DNA from: Clostridia bacterium
Lineage (GTDB): Bacteria; Bacillota; Clostridia; Oscillospirales; Acutalibacteraceae
Reading direction: 5' to 3'
NCBI GenBank assembly: GCA_017543285.1
Contig: JAFYGK010000012.1
Span: 1 to 64,000 of the forward strand
Length of the DNA: 64,000 nucleotides
Made by a program: the position numbers and the translations under genes. Shown one piece after another: positions 3,909 to 15,011 of this stretch; position 1 is the first letter of the stretch, and each line of letters starts with the position of its first letter. The notes beneath the pieces were generated by a model. It made no database searches. It was not told the DNA's origin and saw nothing but the letters and a program-made list of their open reading frames with translations.

Positions 3909-5693
3909 CTATTCTTCGGCAGTCGGGCTTGTTTCCGGCGGAGTTTCAGAGGAAGGTTCGGGCTGCTGCGATGACGGAGGCTGCTGCGACGATGACGACG
4001 GCTGCTGAGAGGAGGAAACCGGCTTTTCATATGTGCTGACTGTCAGCGTAACATGTGTGCCGTATTCATATTCTCTGCCAGCGGTCAGATCCGAACCAAT
4101 GACCTCGCCGTAATTGCCCTGCGCGGCGTCTTCCTCGATAACAACGACAAAGCCGAGCTGCGACAGGGTCGCTGCCGCCTGATAGGCCTTTTTGCCGACC
4201 ACCTTGGGCATCTCTCTCATCCTGGGTCCGAGCGAGACCTTGATATGCACCGTTTCGCCCTCCTCGATGAGAGTGCCCGGCGAGGGAGTCGTCTCAACGA
4301 CCCTGCCCTCGTCAAAGGTATCGCTGAAAACATATCCGTCAAATACAAACCGCATGTATGCCCATTGCATATTGTCGGTCAGGTCGCTGTAATTGACGCC
4401 CATAATATCATACGGAACGGCAAAATTGAATTCGGGGGCGCTTTCGGATGAGGACTCCGGCTCGCTTGACAATTCCGACGACATTTCAATGGAGACCGGC
4501 TCGACCGACGACGGATTTTCTCTTGAGCGCCCGCCGAGGACGACTGCAAGCACAGCTATTGCGATGAGCAGCAGCAGACCGAGAACCCCGCAGGCTATAT
4601 ACAGACCGATATTGCTTTTTCTTCCGACCGGCGATTCATCGTAGTAGTCCTGTTCCTCCTCGACCATTCTTCTGCGCGCCGATTCTCTGTCCAATTGGGC
4701 CTGTTCCTTTTCATATTCCTTGACGACGCCGTTCACCGCCGTAGAGGAAGTAAGCTCCTGCTTGAACACATCCACCGAGTTTGTTCTCATTTCGGGGTGT
4801 ACCTTTAAAGCTTTGTTGAGCGCCGAGAGAACGTTCGGAGGAAGCTGGGAGCTGACCTCAAGCGGGAAATTTAAGGTCTCGTTGTTCATGCGCTGCAAAA
4901 CGTCCGGCAGGACGGTTCCCGTCAGCGCGGTATATATAGTCGAAGCAAGGCCGTATACGTCGGTATGATGTCCGAGCCTTCCGTCCGAGCGGTATTGTTC
5001 AAGCGCGGAATAACCGTCGAATATCTGCGGATTGAGGTATGTTCCCGAGCTGTTGGCGGCCTCAATGGAAAAGTTGGTCAGGCGGAGCTTGCCAGAAGCG
5101 TCGAGTATGAGATTGTCGGGATTTACCGCATAGTGGTTTATCCCGGCGGCGTGAAGCGCGGCGAGTCCGTTGATCACCGGTACGAACAGAGTGCGCACCT
5201 GCTTCCATTCGAGCGGTCTGGAATGGCGCTCGAGAGCCTCGGAGAGGGTGCAGCCGTCGACAAGCTCGCCGACACAGTAGACGGTGCCGTTTGTCTCAAA
5301 TATATCGTAAATGGGAACAAGCATGGGAATATCGCGCAGCTTTGCGAGCATTCTTGCCATGCCGATAAAATCCTTGTAGTATTCGTAAAAGGCTGTTTCG
5401 CATCCGTTGATTATTCTCAGGCTGTTGTCGCCGGTATTTCTTGCGGAAATATTTACGGGGAAAAACTCTCTGATCTGCACGGGAGCGTTCATCTTGTTGT
5501 CCCAGCCGGAATAAGAGGCGCCGTCGCCGTTCGCGAGCAGCAGGCAGCCGACGGTATATCTTTCCTGGATACCGGTGCCTACAGGCAAAAAAGGCTCGGG
5601 ATTCTGCTGCGGGGTATATCCGCAGTGGGGGCACTGGGAAAAGCCTTCGTCAGGCTTCATGCATCTCGCGCATAAATTGTTAGGTATAGACAT
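3909..5693 (-). CDS. Ser/Thr kinase-like pseudokinase with N-terminal zinc ribbon, one TM helix and two extracellular PASTA domains
   Basis: N-terminal CxxC...CxxC. The kinase fold is recognisable but the catalytic residues are replaced (VAIK becomes VQIR, HRDLKPxN becomes HYAVNPDN, DFG becomes NFS). A TM helix (LYIACGVLGLLLLIAIAVLAVVL) follows, then two PASTA-like repeats and a Q/P/S-rich tail. Confidence 0.65.
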   Translation of the reverse strand: MSIPNNLCARCMKPDEGFSQCPHCGYTPQQNPEPFLPVGTGIQERYTVGCLLLANGDGASYSGWDNKMNAPVQIREFFPVNISARNTGDNSLRIINGCETAFYEYYKDFIGMARMLAKLRDIPMLVPIYDIFETNGTVYCVGELVDGCTLSEALERHSRPLEWKQVRTLFVPVINGLAALHAAGINHYAVNPDNLILDASGKLRLTNFSIEAANSSGTYLNPQIFDGYSALEQYRSDGRLGHHTDVYGLASTIYTALTGTVLPDVLQRMNNETLNFPLEVSSQLPPNVLSALNKALKVHPEMRTNSVDVFKQELTSSTAVNGVVKEYEKEQAQLDRESARRRMVEEEQDYYDESPVGRKSNIGLYIACGVLGLLLLIAIAVLAVVLGGRSRENPSSVEPVSIEMSSELSSEPESSSESAPEFNFAVPYDIMGVNYSDLTDNMQWAYMRFVFDGYVFSDTFDEGRVVETTPSPGTLIEEGETVHIKVSLGPRMREMPKVVGKKAYQAAATLSQLGFVVVIEEDAAQGNYGEVIGSDLTAGREYEYGTHVTLTVSTYEKPVSSSQQPSSSSQQPPSSQQPEPSSETPPETSPTAEE

Positions 5694-5964
5694 TTATATC
5701 TGCCTCCGTTTAGCTTTCGGATCGGATTTATACTTATCTGCCGCAGAGAAAAAAGCGGGCGGCAAATCTGCATTTTTACATAAATACCCACGATATAATA
5801 ATCCTTTATATATTTTAACAGACTTTCAGTCAAAAAGCAATACATATTTACCGACGGGTAAATCAATGCGGTATACGTCCGATTGACAACCGGCATTTTG
5901 CGTGATAAAATCAAATCGGGTCGTTTTTCGACCCGGACATTTTTACCGAAAGGAAGCTCGCCGC

Positions 5965-6609
5965 GTGAAAAAACTGCTTTGTGTTCTGCTTGCCGCCGCC
6001 GTTGCGCTGTCGCTTCTTTGCTGCGGCAGATACGATAATTCATCCGACCAGAATATTTATGTGCCCGACCAGGGAACTTCAAACGAATTAAAGCTCATCG
6101 AGGATTCATCCGCGCCCGACCGGTCGGAAAAACCGTCCTCCCCGAGCGGCAGGGCGGAAAAAGGCAGCAGCCAAAGCCCGCAGAAAAGTGAAGGCGGCAG
6201 CCCGGATTCCGAACCGCAGAGCAGCAATGCCTCGTCCGAACCGCAGGGCGGCAGGAAGACGCTCGATAAAAACGGAACATATACAAGCCGCGACGATGTA
6301 GCGCTGTATATCCGCCTTTACAACACTCTTCCCGAAAACTTTATCACCAAAAGGGAGGCCGAAGCGCTCGGCTGGACCGGCGGCAGTCTCGAGCCTTATG
6401 CCCCGGGAAAATGTATAGGAGGCGGACGCTTCGGCAACTATGAGGGAGCGCTGCCCGATAAAAAAGGGCGCAAATACTGGGAGTGCGACATTGACACGCT
6501 GGGCAGGAAAAGCCGCGGAGCAAAGCGCATAGTTTATTCCAATGACGGGCTTATCTATTATACCGGAGACCATTACAAAACCTTTACGCTGCTGTACGGG
6601 GAGGAATAG
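5965..6609 (+). CDS. Secreted barnase-family guanyl-specific ribonuclease, lipoprotein with S/P-rich linker
   Basis: The C-terminal ~110 aa align with barnase (LPENFITKREAEALGW; APGKCIGGGRFGNYEGALP; RIVYSNDGLIYYTGDHYKTF). The catalytic Glu, Arg and His are conserved. GTG start 8 nt after RBS aaaggaag, followed by a lipobox (ALSLLCCG). Confidence 0.75.
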   Translation: MKKLLCVLLAAAVALSLLCCGRYDNSSDQNIYVPDQGTSNELKLIEDSSAPDRSEKPSSPSGRAEKGSSQSPQKSEGGSPDSEPQSSNASSEPQGGRKTLDKNGTYTSRDDVALYIRLYNTLPENFITKREAEALGWTGGSLEPYAPGKCIGGGRFGNYEGALPDKKGRKYWECDIDTLGRKSRGAKRIVYSNDGLIYYTGDHYKTFTLLYGEE

Positions 6610-6612
6610 AAA

Positions 6613-6891
6613 ATGAAAAAGGTTGTGCTCGACGGAGCCGTTCTGACAAATATGGAGGATGTTCATGAGTTTCTCGCACGCGAATTGTTTTTTCCCGAGT
6701 GGTACGGCAAAAATCTCGACGCCCTTCATGACTGCCTGACCGACATACATGAGGACGTCAGGATTGTTTTCATAAAGAAAAAGCAAATGAAGCAGAGGCT
6801 GGGCGGATATTATCCCAGGCTGGTCAGGGTTTTCAGGGACAGCAGCGAGGAAAACCCGCATATAAAATTCAGCCGCAGAAACGAAATGTGA
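6613..6891 (+). CDS. Barstar-family ribonuclease inhibitor
   Basis: 92 aa ORF 3 nt downstream of the RNase gene. It matches barstar over the binding helix (FPEWYGKNLDALHDCLTD), including the equivalents of Asp35 and Asp39. Confidence 0.8.
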   Translation: MKKVVLDGAVLTNMEDVHEFLARELFFPEWYGKNLDALHDCLTDIHEDVRIVFIKKKQMKQRLGGYYPRLVRVFRDSSEENPHIKFSRRNEM

Positions 6892-7505
6892 GAAGCGCCA
6901 TGGATACAGAAGTAAAAAGCAGCGAAAAAAAGCCGCTTAAAATTGCGGCTGTCGTTATAATGCTTGCCCTTGCCCTTGCCCTCGCGCTTTTTATCAGCAC
7001 GCCCGAGATGAGGCTCAAGCTCTACCGCGGGACGAGGATAACCGGCGTATCGGATATAAGGATAAACGGAGTGAAGTATTCTCCGGTTGAAAAGTATTCG
7101 GCTTTCGGCAACGGGCAGACCGAGGAAGAGAAACAGCCGCTCGTCCTAAAAAAGAACGTGTTCAGGCTGGAAGGCGGCAGACAGGGCGAATATGCCATTG
7201 AGTATTTCTTTGACAATGCGGAGATAGCCCGGCTGACGGGCGACGACAGCTTTAATGATTTTCCGCAGTATACTCCGGTGCGGTTTGTTTATTACAGCGA
7301 CAACTGGTGGAATGTCGTCAAGCTGTCTCTGGACGCCGATCTGAACGGCGAAGACGGAAACTGGTGGATCACGCTGAAAGCCAAATGCCGGAGCCAGGAG
7401 AGCGACGGAGCCAGGAGCTTTTCAAAGCAGGCAAACTATATTTCCGCGGCGGAAAACGGCGAGGGGATAACCCTTTTGTGCGGCGGGCAGCAAACGGAAC
7501 AATAA
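6888..7505 (+). CDS. Hypothetical membrane-anchored protein, translationally coupled to barstar
   Basis: The start overlaps the barstar stop. There is an N-terminal TM helix (IAAVVIMLALALALALFI). No known domain. An alternative start is the ATG at 6900. Confidence 0.45.
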   Translation: MRSAMDTEVKSSEKKPLKIAAVVIMLALALALALFISTPEMRLKLYRGTRITGVSDIRINGVKYSPVEKYSAFGNGQTEEEKQPLVLKKNVFRLEGGRQGEYAIEYFFDNAEIARLTGDDSFNDFPQYTPVRFVYYSDNWWNVVKLSLDADLNGEDGNWWITLKAKCRSQESDGARSFSKQANYISAAENGEGITLLCGGQQTEQ

Positions 7506-7742: not shown

Positions 7743-8261
7743 TTATGCCCAGGGATCGAGTTCTGCGGGCAGGCGAATATCGGGCAGCAGGAAGTTTTCC
7801 CACAAGAACCATTGGTTTCCCTTTCGGCGCAGCTTGACCTGGCGCTCGGTATCGGCTCCCGACGAGCGGATATACAGTGTCGCATAGCCCTCGTTCTGAT
7901 AGGAGTAGGGATTGTCGAATACCGTCACGGTATAAGGCAGCGAAGGCTCATAATTATTCTGCGGACCGGTTCCGGCGAAATAGGAGCGGGCCACATACAT
8001 TTTTCCTCTCAGCCTGTCCCTGATGAACTGCTGCTCAAACGGGGACAACGGCTGCGGACCCTTGAGGAAGTTGAGCATATTGAATGTTTCCTGCGGATCG
8101 TTTTCGTAATTGCAAAGCACCGCGACGGTCAGAGCCGCCGTCATAAAGGGGGTTGAAAGCGAGGCCTCGGGTACGGATCTCAGCTCGTCAACGGTTTTGG
8201 GCAGTGAGGAAAAAGAAAAAGTATATGTGTTTGGCATTTTTTCTCCTTTGCAGGCAGACAT
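7743..8261 (-). CDS. Hypothetical cytoplasmic protein, last gene of the zinc-ribbon operon
   Basis: 172 aa ORF whose start overlaps the stop of the upstream gene by 1 nt. No recognisable domain. Confidence 0.4.
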   Translation of the reverse strand: MSACKGEKMPNTYTFSFSSLPKTVDELRSVPEASLSTPFMTAALTVAVLCNYENDPQETFNMLNFLKGPQPLSPFEQQFIRDRLRGKMYVARSYFAGTGPQNNYEPSLPYTVTVFDNPYSYQNEGYATLYIRSSGADTERQVKLRRKGNQWFLWENFLLPDIRLPAELDPWA

Positions 8262-8827
8262 TACCGTCCGGGGCCGTTTGGTCTCGGCGGCTGCATGTTT
8301 TGGGGAAGCATCATCCTGTCGACGCTTTTGTTCATGAATGCGTCTGCCTTTTCAATAAGGTTCAGACTTCCGTGTACGGAATATTTTTCCGCGGTGGTCT
8401 GCGCGTGTACGGTTTTCATTTTGGACGACATGACCGACGTCGCAATCAGAGCGACAAGAAGCCCTATGCCGAGAGAAATCACGATGGCGAGAGCAAAATT
8501 GAAGGGGCGTTTTTCCGTTTTTGCATTCAGATCGTAAATCTGACCGTAATCAAAGATTTCGGCATTGATGTCGTCGGTTTCGCCGGCATCGTTTTCGTCA
8601 AAATAAAGCTCATAAATCTGGTTGTAGTCATATCCGTCCGCGTTGTAGTCCTCGCCGATGATCTGATCAAGCTGATCTTCGCTTATCGAGCCGTCCTCTC
8701 CGATTTGGGAGAGCATTTCCATAAGCTGCTCATAGCTGATCTCTTTGTTTCCCTCCTGAGCCGACACGGCAAAAGCGAGCGACAGGCACAGGCAGAGCGC
8801 CAGAAGGACGCAAATCAGTTTTTTCAT
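8261..8827 (-). CDS. Secreted acidic (D/E/Y-rich) protein with C-terminal TM anchor
   Basis: Signal peptide (LLALCLCLSLAFAVSA), an acidic low-complexity ectodomain, a TM helix (FALAIVISLGIGLLVALIA), and a short cytoplasmic tail. Confidence 0.45.
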   Translation of the reverse strand: MKKLICVLLALCLCLSLAFAVSAQEGNKEISYEQLMEMLSQIGEDGSISEDQLDQIIGEDYNADGYDYNQIYELYFDENDAGETDDINAEIFDYGQIYDLNAKTEKRPFNFALAIVISLGIGLLVALIATSVMSSKMKTVHAQTTAEKYSVHGSLNLIEKADAFMNKSVDRMMLPQNMQPPRPNGPGR

Positions 8828-8842
8828 ATTGCCCGCACCTCC

Positions 8843-9922
8843 TTAAAGCAGCCAGAACAGATAGGACAGAGCAAAAACGGCAGCGCCGACGATTGAGGCT
8901 AGACCGAGGAACCATTTCCAGTAGGCTCCCTTGTCGGTCGGCAGATCGCCTACGAATTTTCCTGTCTGGCCGTTCATGGCGAAGGTATATTTCTGTCCGT
9001 TCCATGTTGTGTTCAGCAGCCACACCGGATAGAGGGCATAGCTTGCTCTGGCGTTGTTTAGAGAGATCATGCTCTGCTGTGGCATAACGGCGTTATAGCC
9101 CTGCACAGTCTGGGCAAAGACCTGCTCGGTGGTGCGCTTTATTCTTTCATTGGCGCGCTCGATGCTTTGTTCGGCCGTCACGTCATATTTGTCGGCGAGA
9201 TAGCCTGCCAGATATGCCGTTTGAAAATCGACCGCCTCACTGAAATTATACGGCTCGAGCGATTCCATAAGGGTATCGTCCATTTTTGAAGAGCCGTCCA
9301 CCGGCACGCGCTCAAATCCGAGGGTTCCCCCTCTGATTATATCGTAGAAGTTTGTTTCGGTATAGCTGAATTTACCGTCTGTCCATGTGCGGATCTTAGT
9401 TCCTTTGTAGAACATTCGGGCGTTGGCCTCGGCGGTAAACAGCCAGAACGGGACATATATGCCCTTTATTTCGTCGATGTGGTTTTGATCCCTGAATATT
9501 TTGGGCAGAAGACGTTTGCCTTGCATGTGCTGCATGAGGCCCTTTTTTGCGGCTTCCTTGTCCAGCTTGAAGGGGATTATATAATCGGGCTTCAGCGTGC
9601 CGGAAAACTGCCCCATCATAACGATTGGATTGCCGCAGTAAGGGCATGACGTTGCCGCGAGGCTCTGGTCGCCTATTATTTCGCCGCCGCACGATTTGCA
9701 GACATAGACCCTCATGCCCTCGGTTTCACCCTCCTGCCATTCGGCGCCGGAGGTGTCCCACTGCATATTGTCGCCCTGGGGGGCATCGAGAGCCTCGTCG
9801 AGCTTTTCCAGCTCGCTCATTTCATACTGCGACTCGCAGAAGGGGCATTTCATCTTCTGCAGCCCGCTGTCGAATTCCAGAGCGCCGCCGCAGCTCGGGC
9901 ATTTGTATTCCTGCAATGCCAT
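8843..9922 (-). CDS. Double zinc-ribbon protein with C-terminal TM helix
   Basis: Two CPxCG...CPxC(E/G) ribbon pairs near the N-terminus, a ~200 aa unknown domain, and a C-terminal TM helix (WFLGLASIVGAAVFALSYLFWLL). Confidence 0.6.
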   Translation of the reverse strand: MALQEYKCPSCGGALEFDSGLQKMKCPFCESQYEMSELEKLDEALDAPQGDNMQWDTSGAEWQEGETEGMRVYVCKSCGGEIIGDQSLAATSCPYCGNPIVMMGQFSGTLKPDYIIPFKLDKEAAKKGLMQHMQGKRLLPKIFRDQNHIDEIKGIYVPFWLFTAEANARMFYKGTKIRTWTDGKFSYTETNFYDIIRGGTLGFERVPVDGSSKMDDTLMESLEPYNFSEAVDFQTAYLAGYLADKYDVTAEQSIERANERIKRTTEQVFAQTVQGYNAVMPQQSMISLNNARASYALYPVWLLNTTWNGQKYTFAMNGQTGKFVGDLPTDKGAYWKWFLGLASIVGAAVFALSYLFWLL

Positions 9923-10013
9923 TGTTTTTTATCAGCTCCTTTTCTTGGAGGGGATGGTGGGCTTAAGGAAAAAGGTCGGGCTTGAAGCCGTCGAGCCGCC
10001 GAAGGCGGCTTTT

Positions 10014-11150
10014 TCAGCTTCTCGGTGTTCCGCAGCTCTGGCAGAACTTTGTGTTGTTCACGGCGCCGCAGCTCGGACAGGTCCACGGACCGTCCTGCTG
10101 GACGGGAGAGGTAAACTGCTGCTGACCGGGAGTCTGCTGATACTGCTGCTGAAACCCCTGAGGCTGATTGAATCCGCCGCCCTGATTGAAGCCCTGTTGG
10201 GGATAGCCCTGGTTAAAGCCCTGCTGCTGACCGGGGGCTTGCTGATACTGCTGCTGAAACCCCTGAGGCTGATTGAATCCGCCGCCCTGATTGAAGCCCT
10301 GTTGGGGATAGCCCTGGTTAAAGCCCTGCTGCTGACCGGGGGCTTGCTGATACTGCTGCTGGAAGCCCTGCTGAGGGTAGCCCTGATTCATGTTCACAGG
10401 CTGGCCGTAATTTTGCTGGAAGCCCTGTTGGGGATAGCCCTGATTCATGTTTACAGGCTGAGAGAAGCCCATTGCGCCCTGCTGAAAGCCGGGCTGATTA
10501 AAACCGGGCTGCTGAAAGCCGGGCTGATAGCCGAAGCTCTGTTGTACGCCGCAGGCGCCGGGCATAAGAGCGGCCCTGATGGTCTCGCCCTGTCTTTGCA
10601 GTTCTGAATAGAGAAAGTCGTACTGGCTCTTCGGACGGTTGGAAAAGCTGCTCAGCTCAAACTTTATTTCATTGAACCACGGCGAATTTACATAGATCAC
10701 CGTTTCAAACTCGTAGCTGTATTCATAACGTCTGGGATTGAAGCTGGTATTTTTGCCGTCGGGAGATTTGTAGAATATCTCGGTTTTATGTTCCTCTATC
10801 CTGGTCTCGCATCCTGTGACCTGAGAAATATCAATGATATCGGGGTTCTTTTTGCGCCAGTCGGATGAGGAAGACACGATGAATTTCCCCTGCTGCTGGT
10901 CGATATAAACCTTCGTAGAATTGCCGAGGGTCATGGTCGGATGAAAAGAATTAAGGTTTTGCTCGTTTTGTTCTCTGTAGGCCAGCTGCTGTTTAATCTC
11001 CTCAAGCGTAGACCTTTTTCTGTCGCTGAAAAAAGGCGACAGCTTGCCTGCACAGTTTTTGCAGATATTGCCGTCCTCCAGCTTGCGGTTGCCGAGAAGT
11101 CCGATTTTTTCTCCGCATATATCGCAGAATTTTTTCTCAAATAAAGCCAT
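10014..11150 (-). CDS. DUF4428-like zinc-ribbon protein with Q/G/F/N-rich prion-like repeat domain and C-terminal zinc ribbon
   Basis: N-terminal CDICGEK...CKNC, a ~150 aa Q/N/G/F/Y low-complexity region made of tandem repeats, and a C-terminal WTCPSCGAVNNTKFCQSCG. Confidence 0.6.
   Translation of the reverse strand: MALFEKKFCDICGEKIGLLGNRKLEDGNICKNCAGKLSPFFSDRKRSTLEEIKQQLAYREQNEQNLNSFHPTMTLGNSTKVYIDQQQGKFIVSSSSDWRKKNPDIIDISQVTGCETRIEEHKTEIFYKSPDGKNTSFNPRRYEYSYEFETVIYVNSPWFNEIKFELSSFSNRPKSQYDFLYSELQRQGETIRAALMPGACGVQQSFGYQPGFQQPGFNQPGFQQGAMGFSQPVNMNQGYPQQGFQQNYGQPVNMNQGYPQQGFQQQYQQAPGQQQGFNQGYPQQGFNQGGGFNQPQGFQQQYQQAPGQQQGFNQGYPQQGFNQGGGFNQPQGFQQQYQQTPGQQQFTSPVQQDGPWTCPSCGAVNNTKFCQSCGTPRS
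10145..10470. repeat. In-frame tandem repeats (102 nt x2 plus partial, and a further ~42 nt x2) encoding the Q/G/F/N-rich domain
   Basis: The 34 aa unit QQYQQAPGQQQGFNQGYPQQGFNQGGGFNQPQGF occurs twice exactly at the nucleotide level. QPVNMNQGYPQQGFQQ also occurs twice. Confidence 0.6.
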
Positions 11151-11241
11151 GGTTTTTCTCCTTTGATCGGGGTCTGCATTTTAAAAAGCCTTATGCCGCA
11201 ATCGGCCGGCATTAAAATGCCGGCCGAAAGCTGATTGCCTG

Positions 11242-12591
11242 TTATTTCCGAATATCGTTGTCGTCGAATATATCGCCGCACTCGGGGCAGAATTTGGGAG
11301 GATTCTTGGGGTCTGCGGGCTCCCATCCGCATTTGTCGCACTTATAGAGAGGCGCTCCTGCGGGTTTCGGAGATCCGCACTCGGGGCAGAATTTGCCCTT
11401 GTTGACGGCGCCGCACTTTGTGCATGTCCAGCCTGCCGGGTCTGCCGGCTTGGGCGATCCGCAGTCGGGGCAGAATTTGCCTGTTGCCGTCGCGCCGCAC
11501 TTTGCGCATGTCCAGCCGTTTGCTGCCGGAGCCGCCGGAGCCGCCGGAGCCGTCTGCTGCTGCGCCGCCTGCTGAGCCTGCTGCTGCTGACCGATCGCGA
11601 ACAGATTCTGAGTGTTCATTCCGCCTGCGTTCATAGCCATACCCATACCCATGAAGCCGGCCATCGCGCCGCCTGTGTTGGAAGCCGCGGCGCCCATTGC
11701 GTCGGCCTGAGCTCCGGCGATTGTTGCAGCCGCCATTGTCGGATCTTTGAGCATTGCCGCGCGCTGTGCCTTCTTGATAAGCTCGGCGTCCTCCTCGGGC
11801 AGCGTGACCGAGCCGAGAGCGACCGATACGACCTTCAGGCCTCTTGTCTCTCCCCATTTCTGGGAAAGAGCTTCATTCATGGCGTTTTCAAGGTCGGTAT
11901 TGTGGGAAACTATCTGATTGGGACGCAGCTCAAGATCGGACAGCTTGCCGAATGCCGGCTGCAGAGCGCTGATAAATTCCGTCTTGAGCTGGCCGTCGAG
12001 GGTTTCTCTGCGGTATTCCTCGGTGACGTTGCCGCATACGTTTGTGTAGAAAAGAAGCGGATCGGCTATCCTGTAGGAATAGACGCCGGAGCAGCGAATG
12101 GATACGTCTATGTCAAGACCTATCTTGGAGTCGACGACTCTGAAGGGAACGGGATTTGCCGTGCCGAATTTGTTGTCAAGCAGCTCCTTGGTGTTGAAAT
12201 AGTAAACGCGCTGGTCCTTTCCGGTGTCGCCGCCGTATGTAAAGCGCTTGCCGATGAGCTTGAAGGTCTCCTTGATGCTTTGACCGAGATTGCCTGTGAA
12301 GATACTGGGCTCGGTCGAGCTGTTCCAGGTAAACTGTCCGGGCTCGGCACAGACCTCGACGATCTTGCCCTGCTCGACGATGATCATGCACTGACCGTCG
12401 GCAACGGCGATGCCGGAACCGTTGGAGATGATGTTGTCGTTGCCCTTTGTGTTGGAGGAACGACCGGTGATCTGCTTTTTGCCCCTGACCATCATTACGT
12501 CGTTGGGGATTGCTTCGCAATAGAAAAATTCCTTCCACTGGTCGGCGAGAACACCGCCGACGGCGCCTAAGCCGGCTTTAATAAGTCCCAT
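11242..12591 (-). CDS. SPFH/band-7 domain protein with three C-terminal zinc ribbons (COG4260-like)
   Basis: SPFH-like N-terminal domain, an A/Q/M-rich linker, then WTCAKCG...CPDCG, WTCTKCG...CPECG and CDKCG...CPECG. Start at the ATG 8 nt downstream of RBS aaaggag. Confidence 0.65.
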   Translation of the reverse strand: MGLIKAGLGAVGGVLADQWKEFFYCEAIPNDVMMVRGKKQITGRSSNTKGNDNIISNGSGIAVADGQCMIIVEQGKIVEVCAEPGQFTWNSSTEPSIFTGNLGQSIKETFKLIGKRFTYGGDTGKDQRVYYFNTKELLDNKFGTANPVPFRVVDSKIGLDIDVSIRCSGVYSYRIADPLLFYTNVCGNVTEEYRRETLDGQLKTEFISALQPAFGKLSDLELRPNQIVSHNTDLENAMNEALSQKWGETRGLKVVSVALGSVTLPEEDAELIKKAQRAAMLKDPTMAAATIAGAQADAMGAAASNTGGAMAGFMGMGMAMNAGGMNTQNLFAIGQQQQAQQAAQQQTAPAAPAAPAANGWTCAKCGATATGKFCPDCGSPKPADPAGWTCTKCGAVNKGKFCPECGSPKPAGAPLYKCDKCGWEPADPKNPPKFCPECGDIFDDNDIRK

Positions 12592-12659
12592 AAAATTTTC
12601 TCCTTTCAAGGGAATGATTTTGTTTTGGAAATATATTTTACAGAGCTGTTCCTCTGTTT

Positions 12660-12941
12660 TTAACTGTCTTTATCATCCTTCGGAGCCTTGTAGGAATAAG
12701 GGTTTTTGTTTGGCCTTTCCGGATCGACGGAGTAATAGCTCATGCCGTAATTCAGGATAAGAGTCACGATTATTATCATTACCGCCCAAAGCGAGATCGC
12801 CCCGACAAACCACCATATGCTGATTTTGAGCCAGAAATGCAGAATCAGCAAAAGAGCGGGAACCGTAAGCCACTGCCAGTTGATGAACATATTGAGCAGC
12901 ACTCCGGTTAAAAAGCCGACGGTTCTTTTTGGGGTTTTCAT
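12660..12941 (-). CDS. Small hypothetical membrane protein (2 TM)
   Basis: 93 aa with two hydrophobic helices. It lies 50 nt upstream of the SPFH gene on the same strand. Confidence 0.4.
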   Translation of the reverse strand: MKTPKRTVGFLTGVLLNMFINWQWLTVPALLLILHFWLKISIWWFVGAISLWAVMIIIVTLILNYGMSYYSVDPERPNKNPYSYKAPKDDKDS

Positions 12942-13157
12942 ATCAGTCTCCGGTTAGATTTTATCTATTTATCATTATATATTAATTAAATAAAAAAATC
13001 ACTACCCCTGAATAAAAATTTTACAATTTTTTCGGATTTTTTCAATTATTATCTCAAAAAAACAGGAGCAATCTGCAATCGCGTCAAAACACATCGCATA
13101 TCTTTCACCGTGATCGGAACAATCTCCCTCTCCGGGCAAATAAACCCGGCCGAAATA

Positions 13158-13186
13158 TTGTTTTGCCATCCGATAAATGGTATAAT
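13158..13186 (+). promoter_or_regulatory. Sigma-A promoter (TTGTTT-N17-TGnTATAAT) for the flavodiiron gene
   Basis: An extended -10 (tggTATAAT) at 13178-13186 and a -35 TTGTTT at 13158-13163. A strong RBS aagaggagg sits before the ATG at 13221. Confidence 0.5.
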
Positions 13187-13220
13187 AATCCTATACTTCA
13201 CGAAAAAGAGGAGGAAGCAT

Positions 13221-15011
13221 ATGTTTATATCCAACGACGTCAAATACATCGGCGTGAACGATCACGACATAGACCTTTTTGAGGGGCAGTATGTCGTTGA
13301 AAACGGAATGGCCTATAATTCCTACGCCGTTATTGATGAAAAGACCGCCGTAATGGATACGGTGGACGCACGCTTTACCCACGAATGGCTGGATAACATC
13401 TCCGATGCTCTCGGGGGCAGAAAGCCCGACTATCTTGTGGTTCAGCACATGGAGCCGGATCATTCGGCAAACATCGCCAACTTTATGCAGACCTATCCCG
13501 AGGCAAGGATAGTCTCCAGCGCAAAAGCGTTTGCCATGATGAAGCAGTTTTTCGGCACCGATTTTGCCGACCGTCAGATAGTCGTCGGAGAGGGCGACAC
13601 GCTGAATCTGGGAAAACACACGCTGACCTTTGTCACCGCCCCCATGGTGCACTGGCCGGAGGTCATCGTAACATATGACGACGTCGACGGGATCCTGTTC
13701 TCGGCAGACGGCTTCGGCAAGTTCGGCGCGCTGGATGTTGAGGAGGACTGGGCATGCGAAGCCAGACGCTATTACATAGGCATTGTCGGCAAATACGGCG
13801 CTCAGGTGCAGGCGCTTTTGAAAAAAGCGGCGAACCTTGATATCCGGATCATCTGCCCGCTTCACGGTCCCGTTCTCTCGGAGGATCTCGGCTACTATCT
13901 CGGCCTTTACAATACATGGTCGAGCTATTCGGTAGAGACCGAGGGCATCGTCATCTGCTACACCTCGGTTTACGGCAACACAAAGAAGGCCGTCGAGCTG
14001 CTGGCGCAAAAACTGCGCGACAAGGGCTGCCCCAAGGTCGCCGTCAATGATCTGGCGCGCGAGGATATGGCTGAGTGTGTCGAGGACGCCTTCCGTTACG
14101 GCAAAATCGTGCTGGCGACCACAACGTACAACGCCGAAATATTCCCCTTCATGCGCGAATTCATAAATCATCTTGTTGAACGCGGCTACAAAAACCGCAC
14201 TGTCGGCCTGATAGAAAACGGCTCGTGGGCTCCGCTGGCTGCAAAGACCATGAAGAAGCTGCTGGAGCCCTGCAAAAACATCACCTACACCGACACGACC
14301 GTCAGGATAATGTCCGCCATGAACGACGACAACAAGGCGCAGATCGAAGCTCTCGCCGATGAGCTTTGCAGGGATTACATCGCCCAGAGCAGCGACAAGG
14401 CCGACAAGCACGATCTGACGGCTTTGTTCAACATCGGATACGGCCTTTATGTCGTCACCTCCAACGACGGCAAAAAGGACAACGGACTGATCGTGAATAC
14501 GGTAACGCAGGTAACTAATACTCCGAACAGGGTTGCCGTCACGATAAACAAGCAGAACTATTCTCATCACATCATCAGGCAGACCGGAATAATGAACGTA
14601 AACTGCCTGTCCACCGACGCGCCGTTTTCCGTATTTGAGAATTTCGGCTTCCAGAGCGGCAGAGTTGCCGATAAATTTGTCGGAATCGAAAAGCTGCGCT
14701 CGGACAACGGACTTGTATTTTTGCCCAGATACATCAATTCCTTCATGTCGCTCAAGGTGGAGCAGTATATCGACCTGGATACCCACGGCATGTTCATCTG
14801 TGAAATAACCGAAGCGCGGGTCATTTCCGACAGGGAGACAATGACCTACACATACTATCAGAACAATGTCAAGCCCAAGCCGCAGACCGAGGGCAAAAAG
14901 GGTTGGGTCTGCAAGGTTTGCGGATATGTCTATGAGGGCGACGAGCTGCCCGAGGACTTCATCTGCCCGCTGTGCAAGCATGGCGTCGCGGATTTTGAAC
15001 CGATAGAATAA
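13221..15011 (+). CDS. Multidomain flavodiiron protein (FprA-like): metallo-beta-lactamase/flavodoxin core + flavin reductase domain + C-terminal rubredoxin
   Basis: Diiron-site motifs (HMEPDHS), a flavodoxin-like segment, a flavin-reductase-like domain, and a C-terminal rubredoxin (CKVCGYVYEG...CPLCKHG). Start set by the promoter and RBS rather than the longer ORF. Confidence 0.85.
   Translation: MFISNDVKYIGVNDHDIDLFEGQYVVENGMAYNSYAVIDEKTAVMDTVDARFTHEWLDNISDALGGRKPDYLVVQHMEPDHSANIANFMQTYPEARIVSSAKAFAMMKQFFGTDFADRQIVVGEGDTLNLGKHTLTFVTAPMVHWPEVIVTYDDVDGILFSADGFGKFGALDVEEDWACEARRYYIGIVGKYGAQVQALLKKAANLDIRIICPLHGPVLSEDLGYYLGLYNTWSSYSVETEGIVICYTSVYGNTKKAVELLAQKLRDKGCPKVAVNDLAREDMAECVEDAFRYGKIVLATTTYNAEIFPFMREFINHLVERGYKNRTVGLIENGSWAPLAAKTMKKLLEPCKNITYTDTTVRIMSAMNDDNKAQIEALADELCRDYIAQSSDKADKHDLTALFNIGYGLYVVTSNDGKKDNGLIVNTVTQVTNTPNRVAVTINKQNYSHHIIRQTGIMNVNCLSTDAPFSVFENFGFQSGRVADKFVGIEKLRSDNGLVFLPRYINSFMSLKVEQYIDLDTHGMFICEITEARVISDRETMTYTYYQNNVKPKPQTEGKKGWVCKVCGYVYEGDELPEDFICPLCKHGVADFEPIE

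Follow-up and report, generated by a model that had tools for sequence, protein, structure and literature searches.

The question raised by this locus is why a bacterial zinc-ribbon protein should carry a stretch of 150 residues composed almost solely of glutamine, glycine, phenylalanine, asparagine, proline and tyrosine, how such a stretch is generated, and what it might do. The window, by which we mean the whole 64,000-nucleotide stretch of DNA that was analysed, contains a gene with this feature, and the reading that we prefer, giving it about an even chance, is that this low-complexity domain (LCD) is a disordered, flexible and weakly cohesive tether of sticker-and-spacer type, within a protein of an SPFH operon, which evolves by repeat slippage.

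The DUF4428 protein and its low-complexity domain

The 378-aa product is a cytoplasmic protein of gut Clostridia, identical to MBR6407240.1 ('MAG: Clostridia bacterium'; cluster member P0121). It consists, in order, of a zinc ribbon (DUF4428), a PH-like domain, the LCD and a second zinc ribbon:

10014-11150, (-) strand: gene for the DUF4428-family protein, 378 aa (open reading frame list, Pfam DUF4428)
10989-11126, (-) strand: N-terminal zinc ribbon, DUF4428 (PF14471), aa 9-54 (Pfam, cysteine columns, AF2)
10563-10949, (-) strand: PH/PTB-like beta-sandwich with C-terminal helix, about aa 68-196 (structural matches)
10095-10544, (-) strand: LCD, aa 203-352, 150 aa (composition, AF2, aromatic spacing)
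10017-10088, (-) strand: C-terminal zinc ribbon, aa 355-378, WTCPSCG...FCQSCG (AF2, BLASTP)

The sequence-only reading that preceded this analysis placed the LCD between two zinc ribbons, but a helix and a PH-like domain of about 125 aa separate it from the N-terminal one. The Pfam DUF4428 match (aa 9-54) has an E-value of 5.8e-18 and 64.9 bits against a cut-off of 27.8, and its two CxxC pairs (C9, C12, C30 and C33) are invariant across 50 sequences. In the AF2 model this ribbon forms beta hairpins (block-mean pLDDT 73-91 over aa 1-50), confidence exceeds 90 through most of aa 31-200, and the C-terminal ribbon, for which the Pfam DZR match is sub-threshold, is modelled at 82-94 over aa 351-378. 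The central domain fits the PH/PTB-like superfold: a helix at the C-terminal end caps its beta-sandwich, PH domains are among its structural matches, and its best matches include PTB and FERM-F3 domains, which bind peptides and recognise NPxY/F. No Pfam model covers it; a search of Pfam and NCBIfam yielded no name for this domain or for the neighbouring genes, and every match in a homology search with the window protein was annotated 'hypothetical'.

The LCD itself is as first described: Q (37%), G (19%), F (11%), P (10%), N (8%) and Y (6%) together account for 91% of aa 203-352, and there is no D, E, K or R. It is predicted to be disordered, with AF2 pLDDT below 50 for most of aa 203-350, no secondary structure and a negative FoldIndex. 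The reading frame is uninterrupted between the folded head and the CxxC...CxxC ribbon at the C-terminus, and likewise in the LCD-bearing homologues examined; the feature is far beyond chance. An antisense reading frame across the same region (9714-10607, 297 aa, leucine-rich) lacks conserved partner domains and was set aside as an incidental product of the CTG-rich strand opposite the LCD. The 25 aromatic residues (about 17%) occur at one F or Y per 2-10 residues; their gaps have a coefficient of variation of 0.39 against 0.86 in shuffled sequences (0 of 2000 shuffles were as regular), none are adjacent where 4.1 adjacent cases are expected, and the widest gap is 10 rather than the expected 20.6 residues, although shuffle statistics, here and for the family below, overstate significance because the spacing follows in part from the way the repeats are built and because related sequences are not independent data points.

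An uncharged polar segment bearing regularly spaced F, Y and M could bind lipid-packing defects in the manner of ALPS motifs, and the SPFH/YdjG-like context described below does suggest membrane stress (PMC8581546). The aromatic gaps of 4-10 residues, however, give no amphipathic periodicity of 3.6 residues, a proline at least every 12 residues and 19% glycine disfavour a helix, and AF2 predicts none in the LCD, so that a membrane-defect sensor is highly improbable.

In composition, and in composition only, the LCD is prion-like or phase-separating. The criterion of Michelitsch and Weissman reportedly asks for at least 30 Q+N in a window of 80 residues, and the LCD reaches 41 (window from aa 260). 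The PAPA scoring suggested with the sequence-only reading gave 0.087, against a threshold of 0.05 and a Sup35N control at 0.100, in a re-implementation with provisional parameters and a provisional Sup35 sequence; LCD composition correlates with that of the same Sup35N sequence at r = 0.87. These values, the disorder and the even aromatics bear out the prion-like description, but neither true amyloid nor the label of FG-type follows. The dipeptide GF occurs 14 times (GFNQ seven times, GFQQ six) and FG, counted by eye, once, and the LCD lacks the repeated GLFG or FxFG of FG-nucleoporins; an uncharged spacer and evenly placed Phe/Tyr are present.

A true amyloid prion or heritable switch is unlikely. 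The specific proposal, that the LCD becomes a self-propagating amyloid and so heritably switches the activity of an SPFH-associated complex, draws on the Q+N density and PAPA-like score, on oligopeptide repeats resembling the PQGGYQQYN of Sup35, and on the existence of bacterial prion-forming domains such as that of Clostridium botulinum Rho (PMC4703818, PMC6400439); bacterial candidate prion domains are conserved only sporadically within families (PMC6400439). Nevertheless, the longest proline-free stretch is 12 residues in the LCD (family median 13) against 40 in Sup35N, the longest stretch free of both P and G is 8, and a long uninterrupted amyloid-prone core (about 21 or more residues without a breaker) is absent, the frequency of proline arguing against one. 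In addition, the LCD is rich in Q rather than N and contains much glycine, while relatives substitute Met for aromatics or have no LCD, and we regard the proposal as very improbable.

Tandem repeats and copy number

In-frame tandem repeats make up the LCD, and the youngest of them, of 35 aa, is still identical in DNA:

10116-10370, (-) strand: tandem repeat of 105 nt / 35 aa, 2.4 copies (Tandem Repeats Finder; repeat families D3 and D4)
10357-10460, (-) strand: older duplication of 57 nt / 19 aa (repeat family D2)
10479-10528, (-) strand: short array of 15 nt / 5 aa, (Q/N)QPGF type, 3.3 copies (Tandem Repeats Finder; repeat family D1)

The main unit had been described as an exact duplication of 102 nt (34 aa); the measured period is 105 nt (35 aa), with 96% matches, and exactness holds for a run of 122 nt at offset 105 (10135-10256 = 10240-10361), which encodes 44 identical residues at offset 35. 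A second duplicated unit, the 16-aa QPVNMNQGYPQQGFQQ, does occur twice, 19 aa apart, but is exact in protein and not in DNA, its two copies differing by five synonymous and no non-synonymous changes. This pattern may reflect purifying selection, an argument that is post hoc since the block was picked by its amino-acid identity. Glutamine codons across the LCD are strongly skewed (CAG:CAA = 49:7).

Recent expansion and variable copy number had also been suggested, and a comparison of relatives agrees with this in part. Three assemblies (L001-L003) match the window at 99.8-99.96% identity for as much as 13 kb but have an array shorter by 105 nt, lacking exactly one 35-aa unit, so that the short allele encodes 343 aa. 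Sister lineages (90%-identity clusters) provide one allele series with steps of 9 aa (283 to 337 aa) and another with steps of 7 aa (298 to 354 aa). Copy number differs from assembly to assembly within one species and also from one close relative to the next. All of these data appear to be short-read assemblies, with one contig breaking at the repeat, and the extra copy in the window could be a difference between assemblers. Every copy-number change keeps the reading frame, and the LCD is therefore without on/off phase variation.

This brings us to mis-assembly of short reads as the origin of the LCD, or of its extra 35-aa unit. Every source is apparently a metagenome assembly, contig P0122 stops exactly at the start of the 35-aa repeats, and a single study may have produced both the window's own assembly and the three shorter versions, two of the latter bearing sample names of the form XIEF21-1_SAMN158300xx. 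Against this, the LCD is in frame in four assemblies and in the many relatives examined; the alleles of other lineages differ by point changes as well; and the long allele contains purely periodic stretches of more than 122 nt, which short-allele reads could not have yielded at a k above 122. We consider such an artefact highly improbable.

Linker composition across the family

The LCD was thought to be unusual in bacteria, but here an uncharged linker of low complexity is the norm: 130 of 183 close relatives have one with no more than 5% charged residues. Median values among close relatives are 86 aa in length, 31% Q+N, 14% G, 13% P and 13.5% aromatic, while length ranges from 6 to 197 aa and the sequences cannot be aligned. 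Different lineages use repeat units that bear no relation to one another (QAQYGAP, QQPMQGGYA, QQPGFNQGYA, NPYAQQ and GMNQM-type), even where the PH-like domains of close lineages remain 55-65% identical. Aromatic and Met contents are anticorrelated (r = -0.73 and -0.65), and in one locus (L027) Y, F and M exchange at a single position of a G(Y/F/M)PQQ repeat. Of 120 linkers, 87% space their aromatics more evenly than shuffled versions do. Among the close relatives examined, then, the linker is hypervariable, usually uncharged and built from differing in-frame repeats that vary in copy number, and across the family it is free in sequence and length but constrained in composition, with almost no charge and about 14-21% evenly placed Y/F/M in a spacer of Q, N, G, P and A.

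The family is large, comprising 1109 clusters at 50% identity by phmmer and at least 554 matching stretches in GTDB species-representative genomes, from gut and rumen Clostridia; 80 related loci were kept from this genome scan, with a best-segment identity to the window of at most 64%. In a broader sample of 150 representatives (50% clusters) a strictly uncharged LCD was found in 22 of 75 parsed tails, a rough proportion given that the linker regex missed about half of the sample. Some relatives in this sample have folded inserts or charged linkers, so the family can do without the LCD.

Such freedom would be expected of a passive entropic spacer, which sets only distance and flexibility, and whose composition results from slippage-prone DNA rich in CAG and GGC, together with tolerance of change, rather than from selection for cohesion. 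The range of lengths without possible alignment, the short or charged linkers of some relatives, the predicted disorder, and a codon skew that fits repeat-driven growth all favour this. Yet typical passive linkers in bacteria are rich in P, T, S, E and K and poor in aromatics, whereas unrelated units in this family converge on an absence of charge and one Y, F or M per 5-9 residues; the trade-off between aromatics and Met (the stronger of the two correlations), the lack of any adjacent aromatics and the synonymous-only divergence of older repeat copies likewise count against it. We judge a passive spacer to be somewhat doubtful.

Alternatively, the repeats might be an array of motifs (GYPQQ, NPY, QYGAP) bound by the PH/PTB-like domain of the same or a partner protein, leading to head-to-tail polymerisation. 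The PTB and FERM-F3 domains among the structural matches are consistent with this, as are the NPY-containing repeats of several lineages and the form of most units, in which one aromatic is flanked by P, G or Q. Specific recognition is nevertheless hard to reconcile with units that change completely while the PH-like domain is retained at the identity given above, and Met-only variants have no such motif; a motif array is quite improbable.

The SPFH operon and comparison with known systems

The DUF4428 gene lies within a putative operon, whose other members are:

12660-12941, (-) strand: 93-aa membrane protein, putative first gene (open reading frame list)
11242-12609, (-) strand: SPFH/Band_7_1 protein with a G/M/A/Q-rich tail and three zinc ribbons, upstream neighbour (Pfam)
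8843-9922, (-) strand: 359-aa protein, N-terminal pair of zinc ribbons followed by an alpha+beta domain and, at the C-terminus, a TM helix, downstream (Pfam zinc-ribbon matches)
8261-8827, (-) strand: 188-aa membrane protein, distal gene
7743-8261, (-) strand: DUF6935 protein, distal gene (Pfam, E 2.2e-55)

The SPFH protein matches Pfam Band_7_1 at E 2.6e-18 and has DZR ribbons in its tail. In many of the 80 related loci a full-length SPFH match immediately precedes the DUF4428 gene, the 359-aa protein is found downstream in 40, and the two distal genes co-occur in 38; the 93-aa membrane protein gene is also present in L001 and L002. A promoter-like site precedes the putative operon (13045-13018, a consensus match only), and terminator-like sites around it are no more numerous than in shuffled sequence. 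The putative operon is conserved in gut and rumen Clostridia and is centred on an SPFH scaffold resembling YdjI/SamI and a YdjG-like zinc-ribbon membrane protein. Neither a PspA gene nor a TPM-domain YdjH was matched in the operon by Pfam or NCBIfam. PADLOC returned nothing significant for six operon proteins (best PDC-S64, E 0.0039, to zinc ribbons only), and membership in known anti-phage defence systems was rejected on that ground. SNIPE homologues without a TM segment have an N-terminal PH or DUF4428 domain (bioRxiv 10.1101/2025.11.03.685801).

BLASTP aligns the C-terminal ribbon of the DUF4428 protein with a ribbon of the SPFH tail at 64% identity over 22 aa (E 3e-9), and the double ribbon of a homologue (P0012) is 50% identical to the SPFH tail over 64 aa (E 3e-17); judged by sequence similarity, these ribbons are homologous and would constitute a shared tail module. 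Matching of low-complexity sequences between the two proteins was considered and rejected, the SPFH tails being conserved rather than hypervariable, and only Q+N content co-varying between linker and tail (Spearman r = 0.55), which could be a genome-wide bias.

The cohesive tether that we prefer would work as follows. The array would grow and shrink by replication slippage or unequal recombination, and the resulting linker, flexible and weakly self-cohesive, would tie the head of zinc ribbon and PH-like domain to a C-terminal ribbon of the SPFH-tail type. DUF4428 and SPFH proteins could thereby be brought to one and the same site close to the membrane and form multivalent clusters there, as foci or condensate-like assemblies, with repeat number setting both reach and valency. 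Condensate formation by the LCD would be plausible. A bolder version, which we think unlikely, would make DUF4428 proteins an unrecognised class of bacterial scaffold, in which the LCD drives condensate-like clustering of an SPFH membrane-stress complex, gain and loss of in-frame repeats adjust valency strain by strain, and assembly may be sensitive to redox state in lineages where Met replaces the aromatic stickers.

Were the cohesive tether correct, the family would offer a natural bacterial system with constant folded domains and wide variation in the type (Y/F/M) and spacing of stickers and in the number of repeats. Evolution would in effect have already run an experiment on the rules that govern low-complexity sequences, and the family would provide a handle on the organisation of SPFH/flotillin-like scaffolds in genetically difficult anaerobes. 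If it is wrong, the LCD still stands as an example of a coding repeat that evolves fast, one at which short-read assemblies break or collapse and which inflates the clustering of proteins in catalogues of metagenomic data.

The organisation of the operon has its closest analogue in Bacillus subtilis, where YdjI requires YdjG and YdjH for membrane foci and recruits PspA (PMC8581546); a preprint also covers this PspA-YdjGHI (SamGHI) membrane-stress module (bioRxiv 10.64898/2026.02.06.704340). Like YdjI/SamI, the SPFH/Band-7 protein of the window combines a low-complexity region with C-terminal zinc fingers (PMC8581546). YdjG has two zinc ribbons, a further domain and a TM segment (PMC11237479), and we took two zinc ribbons, an NTF2/YpeB-like domain and a TM segment as its defining features; the 359-aa protein, with its two N-terminal ribbons and TM helix beside the SPFH gene, resembles it in architecture and is a tentative YdjG-like candidate, its AF2 model being of low confidence and its fold search equivocal. 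Unlike the B. subtilis system, the operon lacks pspA and a TPM-domain YdjH, and the DUF4428/PH-like/LCD protein is an extra component not described there.

In its in-frame tandem repeats, whose copy number apparently varies between near-identical strains (here, assemblies), the locus resembles the coding VNTR or contingency loci of bacteria, but the repeats occupy a cytoplasmic linker and not a surface antigen. The N domain of Sup35 and the bacterial candidate prion domains of C. botulinum Rho and of SSB linkers share with the LCD a Q/N-rich, uncharged and disordered sequence with oligopeptide repeats of G, Q, Y/F and P. In the LCD, however, Q far exceeds N, F is commoner than Y and there is no long proline-free core, and its host is a zinc-ribbon/PH-like protein of an SPFH operon rather than an RNA- or DNA-binding protein. 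The prion-like domains of FUS and hnRNPA1 and the cohesive FG-nucleoporin domains are sticker-and-spacer domains that phase-separate. The LCD differs from them in using GF/GY rather than FG, in being bacterial, cytoplasmic and 150 aa long, and in the use of Met by some relatives. It resembles them in its even and never adjacent aromatics within an uncharged spacer of G, Q, N and P and, as in sticker-and-spacer domains generally, the sequence of the DUF4428 linker is unconstrained while its composition is conserved family-wide.

A disordered, repeat-built segment of the DUF4428 protein

The low-complexity domain (LCD) occupies aa 203-352 (window 10095-10544, minus strand) of a 378-aa DUF4428-family protein; it is real, disordered, built from repeats and recently expanded. 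The gene and its annotated arrays are as follows.

10014-11150, minus strand: DUF4428-family gene, 378 aa (ORF list)
10116-10370, minus strand: main tandem repeat, 105 nt / 35 aa, 2.4 copies, 96% matches (Tandem Repeats Finder)
10479-10528, minus strand: third array, 15 nt (Tandem Repeats Finder)

Pfam places the DUF4428 domain at aa 9-54 (64.9 bits, cut-off 27.8; E 5.8e-18) and gives a double-zinc-ribbon match below threshold at aa 357-374. In an AlphaFold2 model, for which the input alignment comprised 50 sequences, the head consists of a zinc ribbon, a helix (49-66), a beta-rich domain (73-165) and a further helix (179-195), with block-mean pLDDT of 73-91 across aa 1-50 and mostly >90 across aa 51-200; aa 203-350 are without structure (pLDDT mostly <50), and the C-terminal ribbon (aa 351-378) is confident (block means 82-94). 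The sequence-only reading had set the LCD between two zinc ribbons, which holds for its C-terminal side, but in the modelled layout the neighbour on the other side is a PH-like domain. A plus-strand ORF at 9714-10607 was rejected as a gene, being a leucine-rich antisense shadow of the LCD region.

A second repeat-finding method agrees with Tandem Repeats Finder on the 105-nt repeat, and an exact-run scan at offset 105 returned an identical stretch of 122 nt (10135-10256 = 10240-10361), encoding 44 identical residues at offset 35. The period of 102 nt or 34 aa first assigned to this duplication was therefore one codon too short. These are small numerical and architectural corrections to an observation that was essentially correct. 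A second duplicated unit of 16 aa had also been reported, and the 16-mer QPVNMNQGYPQQGFQQ is indeed present twice, with a period of 19 aa. The DNA of its two copies shows five synonymous differences and no replacement; this duplication is older, with its protein sequence kept, although the reasoning is post hoc, amino-acid identity having served to define the block.

Variation in repeat number and linker sequence

One homologue, P0001, is 100% identical to the query over the N-terminal 202 aa and, at 343 aa, has one 35-aa unit fewer. Three ENA metagenome contigs, L001-L003, carry its gene; along as much as 13 kb they match the window at 99.8-99.96% identity, except that they differ from it by 105 nt within the array. 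The 378-aa form corresponds to MBR6407240.1, a protein of a 'Clostridia bacterium' MAG. Could the feature be an artefact of assembly? A fourth contig (P0122) breaks exactly at the start of the 35-aa repeats, which indicates that assemblers struggle with the region, and the distance between unique anchors is 228 nt in the long allele against 123 nt in the short, so that 150-nt reads can directly confirm the short allele only. Because the periodic stretches exceed 122 nt, the long allele is not derivable from short-allele reads if k >122. It is plausible that both alleles are real, and an artefact is the less likely source.

Within 90%-identity clusters of sister lineages we read one allele ladder of 283, 292, 301, 310, 319, 328 and 337 aa, in 9-aa steps of the unit QQPMQGGYA, and a second from 298 to 354 aa, in 7-aa steps of QAQYGAP; ladder alleles also carry point substitutions. 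Together with the difference from L001-L003, these ladders indicate that repeat gain and loss is a general property of the DUF4428-family linker, and this copy-number check makes the suspected variation between strains probable. The array would grow and shrink by slippage or unequal recombination.

The family is large: in a word-indexed search it comprised 5015 clusters (90% identity), and in a phmmer search of 1.84 billion representatives, 1109 clusters (50% identity) at E <=1e-3 and 419 at <=1e-30. Among GTDB species-representative genomes at least 554 matching stretches were confirmed; the 80 loci retained belong to Oscillospiraceae, Acutalibacteraceae, Ruminococcus, Lachnospiraceae and related-type groups, chiefly gut and rumen MAGs. 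For 183 close relatives we compared the linker, delimited by the PH-like domain on one side and by the first CxxC of the C-terminus on the other. Their linkers are unalignable and range from 6 to 197 aa, that of the window ranking third in length, and first among those of aromatic type. Charged residues make up <=5% of 130 of them, with medians of 86 aa, 31% Q+N, 14% G, 13% P and 13.5% aromatic residues. Repeat units are wholly different across lineages (QAQYGAP, QQPMQGGYA, QQPGFNQGYA, NPYAQQ-type, G(Y/F/M)PQQ and the Met-only GMNQM-type). Family-wide, the linker is hypervariable and length-polymorphic but constrained in composition. In a broader, divergent sample strictly uncharged LCDs occur in only 22 of 75 parsed tails and some carry folded inserts; many members of the family have the LCD, but not all. 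The tails of L059/P0274, P0284 and P0276 have, in the LCD's place before the C-terminal ribbon, a folded-looking insert of ~150 aa (e.g., ...DGIDLTLKINVALKFDVQIIDENIYRYM...).

Composition and prion-like character

The segment aa 203-352 is 37% Q, 19% G, 11% F, 10% P, 8% N and 6% Y, with three aliphatic residues only and, by composition count, no D, E, K or R. The prion-like composition proposed for it finds support in a maximum of 41 Q+N per 80 residues (threshold 30), a negative FoldIndex, a score of 0.087 (threshold 0.05) in a re-implementation of PAPA, where Sup35N scores 0.100, and a composition correlation of r = 0.87 with Sup35N. Against a true prion, however, stand a proline at least every 12 residues and a longest P/G-free stretch of 8, where Sup35N has a 40-residue P-free core (across the family, the longest P-free stretch has a median of 13), the great excess of Q over N, and relatives in which the aromatics are swapped for Met or the LCD is lost. 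A real prion is the less likely reading, and its prion character had been overstated. The term 'FG-type' was loose: GF was counted 14 times and FG, by our own reading, once. Such features are uncommon in bacteria at large, where roughly 0.15% of proteins have N/Q-rich disordered regions and 0.38% have PLAAC/PAPA predictions (PMC6400439), yet they are the norm for the DUF4428 family, so that rarity too was overstated.

The 25 aromatics of the window LCD are 2-10 residues apart and none are adjacent (4.1 expected); the coefficient of variation of their gaps is 0.39 against 0.86 +/- 0.15 in shuffled sequences, and 0/2000 shuffles were equally regular. Spacing is more regular than in shuffles in 87% of 120 family linkers, a figure inflated by repeats and relatedness. 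Aromatic and Met fractions trade off (r = -0.73 in close relatives, -0.65 in a broader set) and sum to 14-21% (interquartile range). The L027 linker, a 5-aa repeat G(Y/F/M)PQQ with Y, F and M alternating at one position, illustrates directly that the three are interchangeable. Long linkers rich in Met, Asn, Gly and Gln (e.g., GMQNQMGMNQMNNM repeats; up to 197 aa) and nearly without aromatics are seen in L052, L076, L073, P0273 and P0281; Met-rich linkers resemble redox-sensitive Met-rich low-complexity domains.

We infer that the LCD is a flexible, weakly cohesive tether of stickers (Y/F/M) and spacers, whose reach and valency would be set by repeat number. The main rival, a passive spacer, accounts for the free linker length but not for the convergent rule (no charge, with one Y/F/M placed evenly every 5-9 residues), nor for the trade-off of Met against aromatics, nor for why the older repeats have diverged at synonymous sites only. 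That the segment acts as an ALPS-like membrane sensor, or as an array of PH-domain ligands, is less likely than such a tether.

The operon, a shared tail module and known systems

The DUF4428 gene belongs to a conserved operon, listed here in transcription order.

12660-12941, minus strand: 93-aa membrane protein
11242-12609, minus strand: SPFH/Band_7_1 protein with a G/M/A/Q-rich tail and three zinc ribbons
10014-11150, minus strand: DUF4428 gene
8843-9922, minus strand: 359-aa protein with two N-terminal zinc ribbons and a C-terminal TM helix (ZnR-TM)
8261-8827, minus strand: 188-aa membrane protein
7743-8261, minus strand: DUF6935 protein

Across the 80 related loci, many of those with enough flank have a full-length SPFH match immediately upstream of the DUF4428 gene; the ZnR-TM protein lies downstream in 40 loci and DUF6935 is found in 38. 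The upstream bound is a gene on the opposite strand at 13110-15011 (+), where the ORF listing has overlapping long ORFs on both strands and syntenic-contig annotation identifies a 596-aa flavo-diiron/rubredoxin-type protein (Lactamase_B, ODP, Flavin_Reduct, rubredoxin-like). Elsewhere in the window (5902-7505, +, and 3909-5693, -) are a barnase-type ribonuclease gene, which in syntenic contig L001 has a barstar gene after it, and, beside these, a gene for a PASTA-domain Ser/Thr kinase. PADLOC matched no defence system at the operon. The spacer on either side of the DUF4428 gene is 91 nt long (11151-11241, 9923-10013). Upstream of the gene it contains a terminator-like hairpin (11212-11193, -) and downstream, by eye, a GC-rich hairpin GCCGCCTTCGGCGGC and then a T-run; internal attenuation or differential expression may occur, the count from a terminator-like scan being not above shuffles. 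The best matches of the ZnR-TM protein, P0149 (531 aa) and P0150 (485 aa; E 1e-216 to 1e-246), far exceed the 361 aa at which that family is otherwise constant; fusion with, or read-through into, the 188-aa membrane protein encoded downstream may account for them. In L003 (~897-906, against window ~12086-12118) a ~23-nt deletion breaks up the SPFH gene, leaving two ORFs of 212 aa each, the result of either pseudogenisation or misassembly.

The C-terminal ribbon is common to the DUF4428 protein and the adjacent SPFH protein (64% identity to an SPFH-tail ribbon, E 3e-9; for double-ribbon homologues, 50% over 64 aa, E 3e-17), a similarity indicating that the two share a tail module of low-complexity segment plus ribbon. 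SPFH tails are conserved (GAMTGFMGMGMAMNAGG...QQQ), not hypervariable. An 84-nt tandem duplication in the SPFH gene tail (11358-11517, -; 1.9 copies, 85% matches) encodes the consecutive zinc ribbons GWTCAKCGATATGKFCPDCGSPKP and GWTCTKCGAVNKGKFCPECGSPKP, which makes this a duplication of the ribbon module itself. The tether would help the ribbon-PH protein and the SPFH complex to cluster together at a site near the membrane.

Precedents come from the YdjGHI membrane-stress module of Bacillus subtilis, in which membrane foci of the SPFH protein YdjI require the membrane proteins YdjG and YdjH, and YdjI recruits PspA (PMC8581546; bioRxiv 10.64898/2026.02.06.704340); YdjG has two zinc ribbons, an NTF2/YpeB-like domain and a TM segment (PMC11237479). 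The operon here has SPFH and YdjG-like architectures in common with that module but, in Pfam/NCBIfam searches of its genes, lacks pspA and a TPM-domain YdjH homologue. DUF4428 is an N-terminal module alternative to the PH domain in TM-less homologues of a membrane nuclease, SNIPE (bioRxiv 10.1101/2025.11.03.685801), and elsewhere in the literature searched receives just passing mentions. Among known bacterial prion-like or sticker-spacer low-complexity linkers, the LCD is a new, uncharacterised case, and one whose natural variation across the family is unusually informative.
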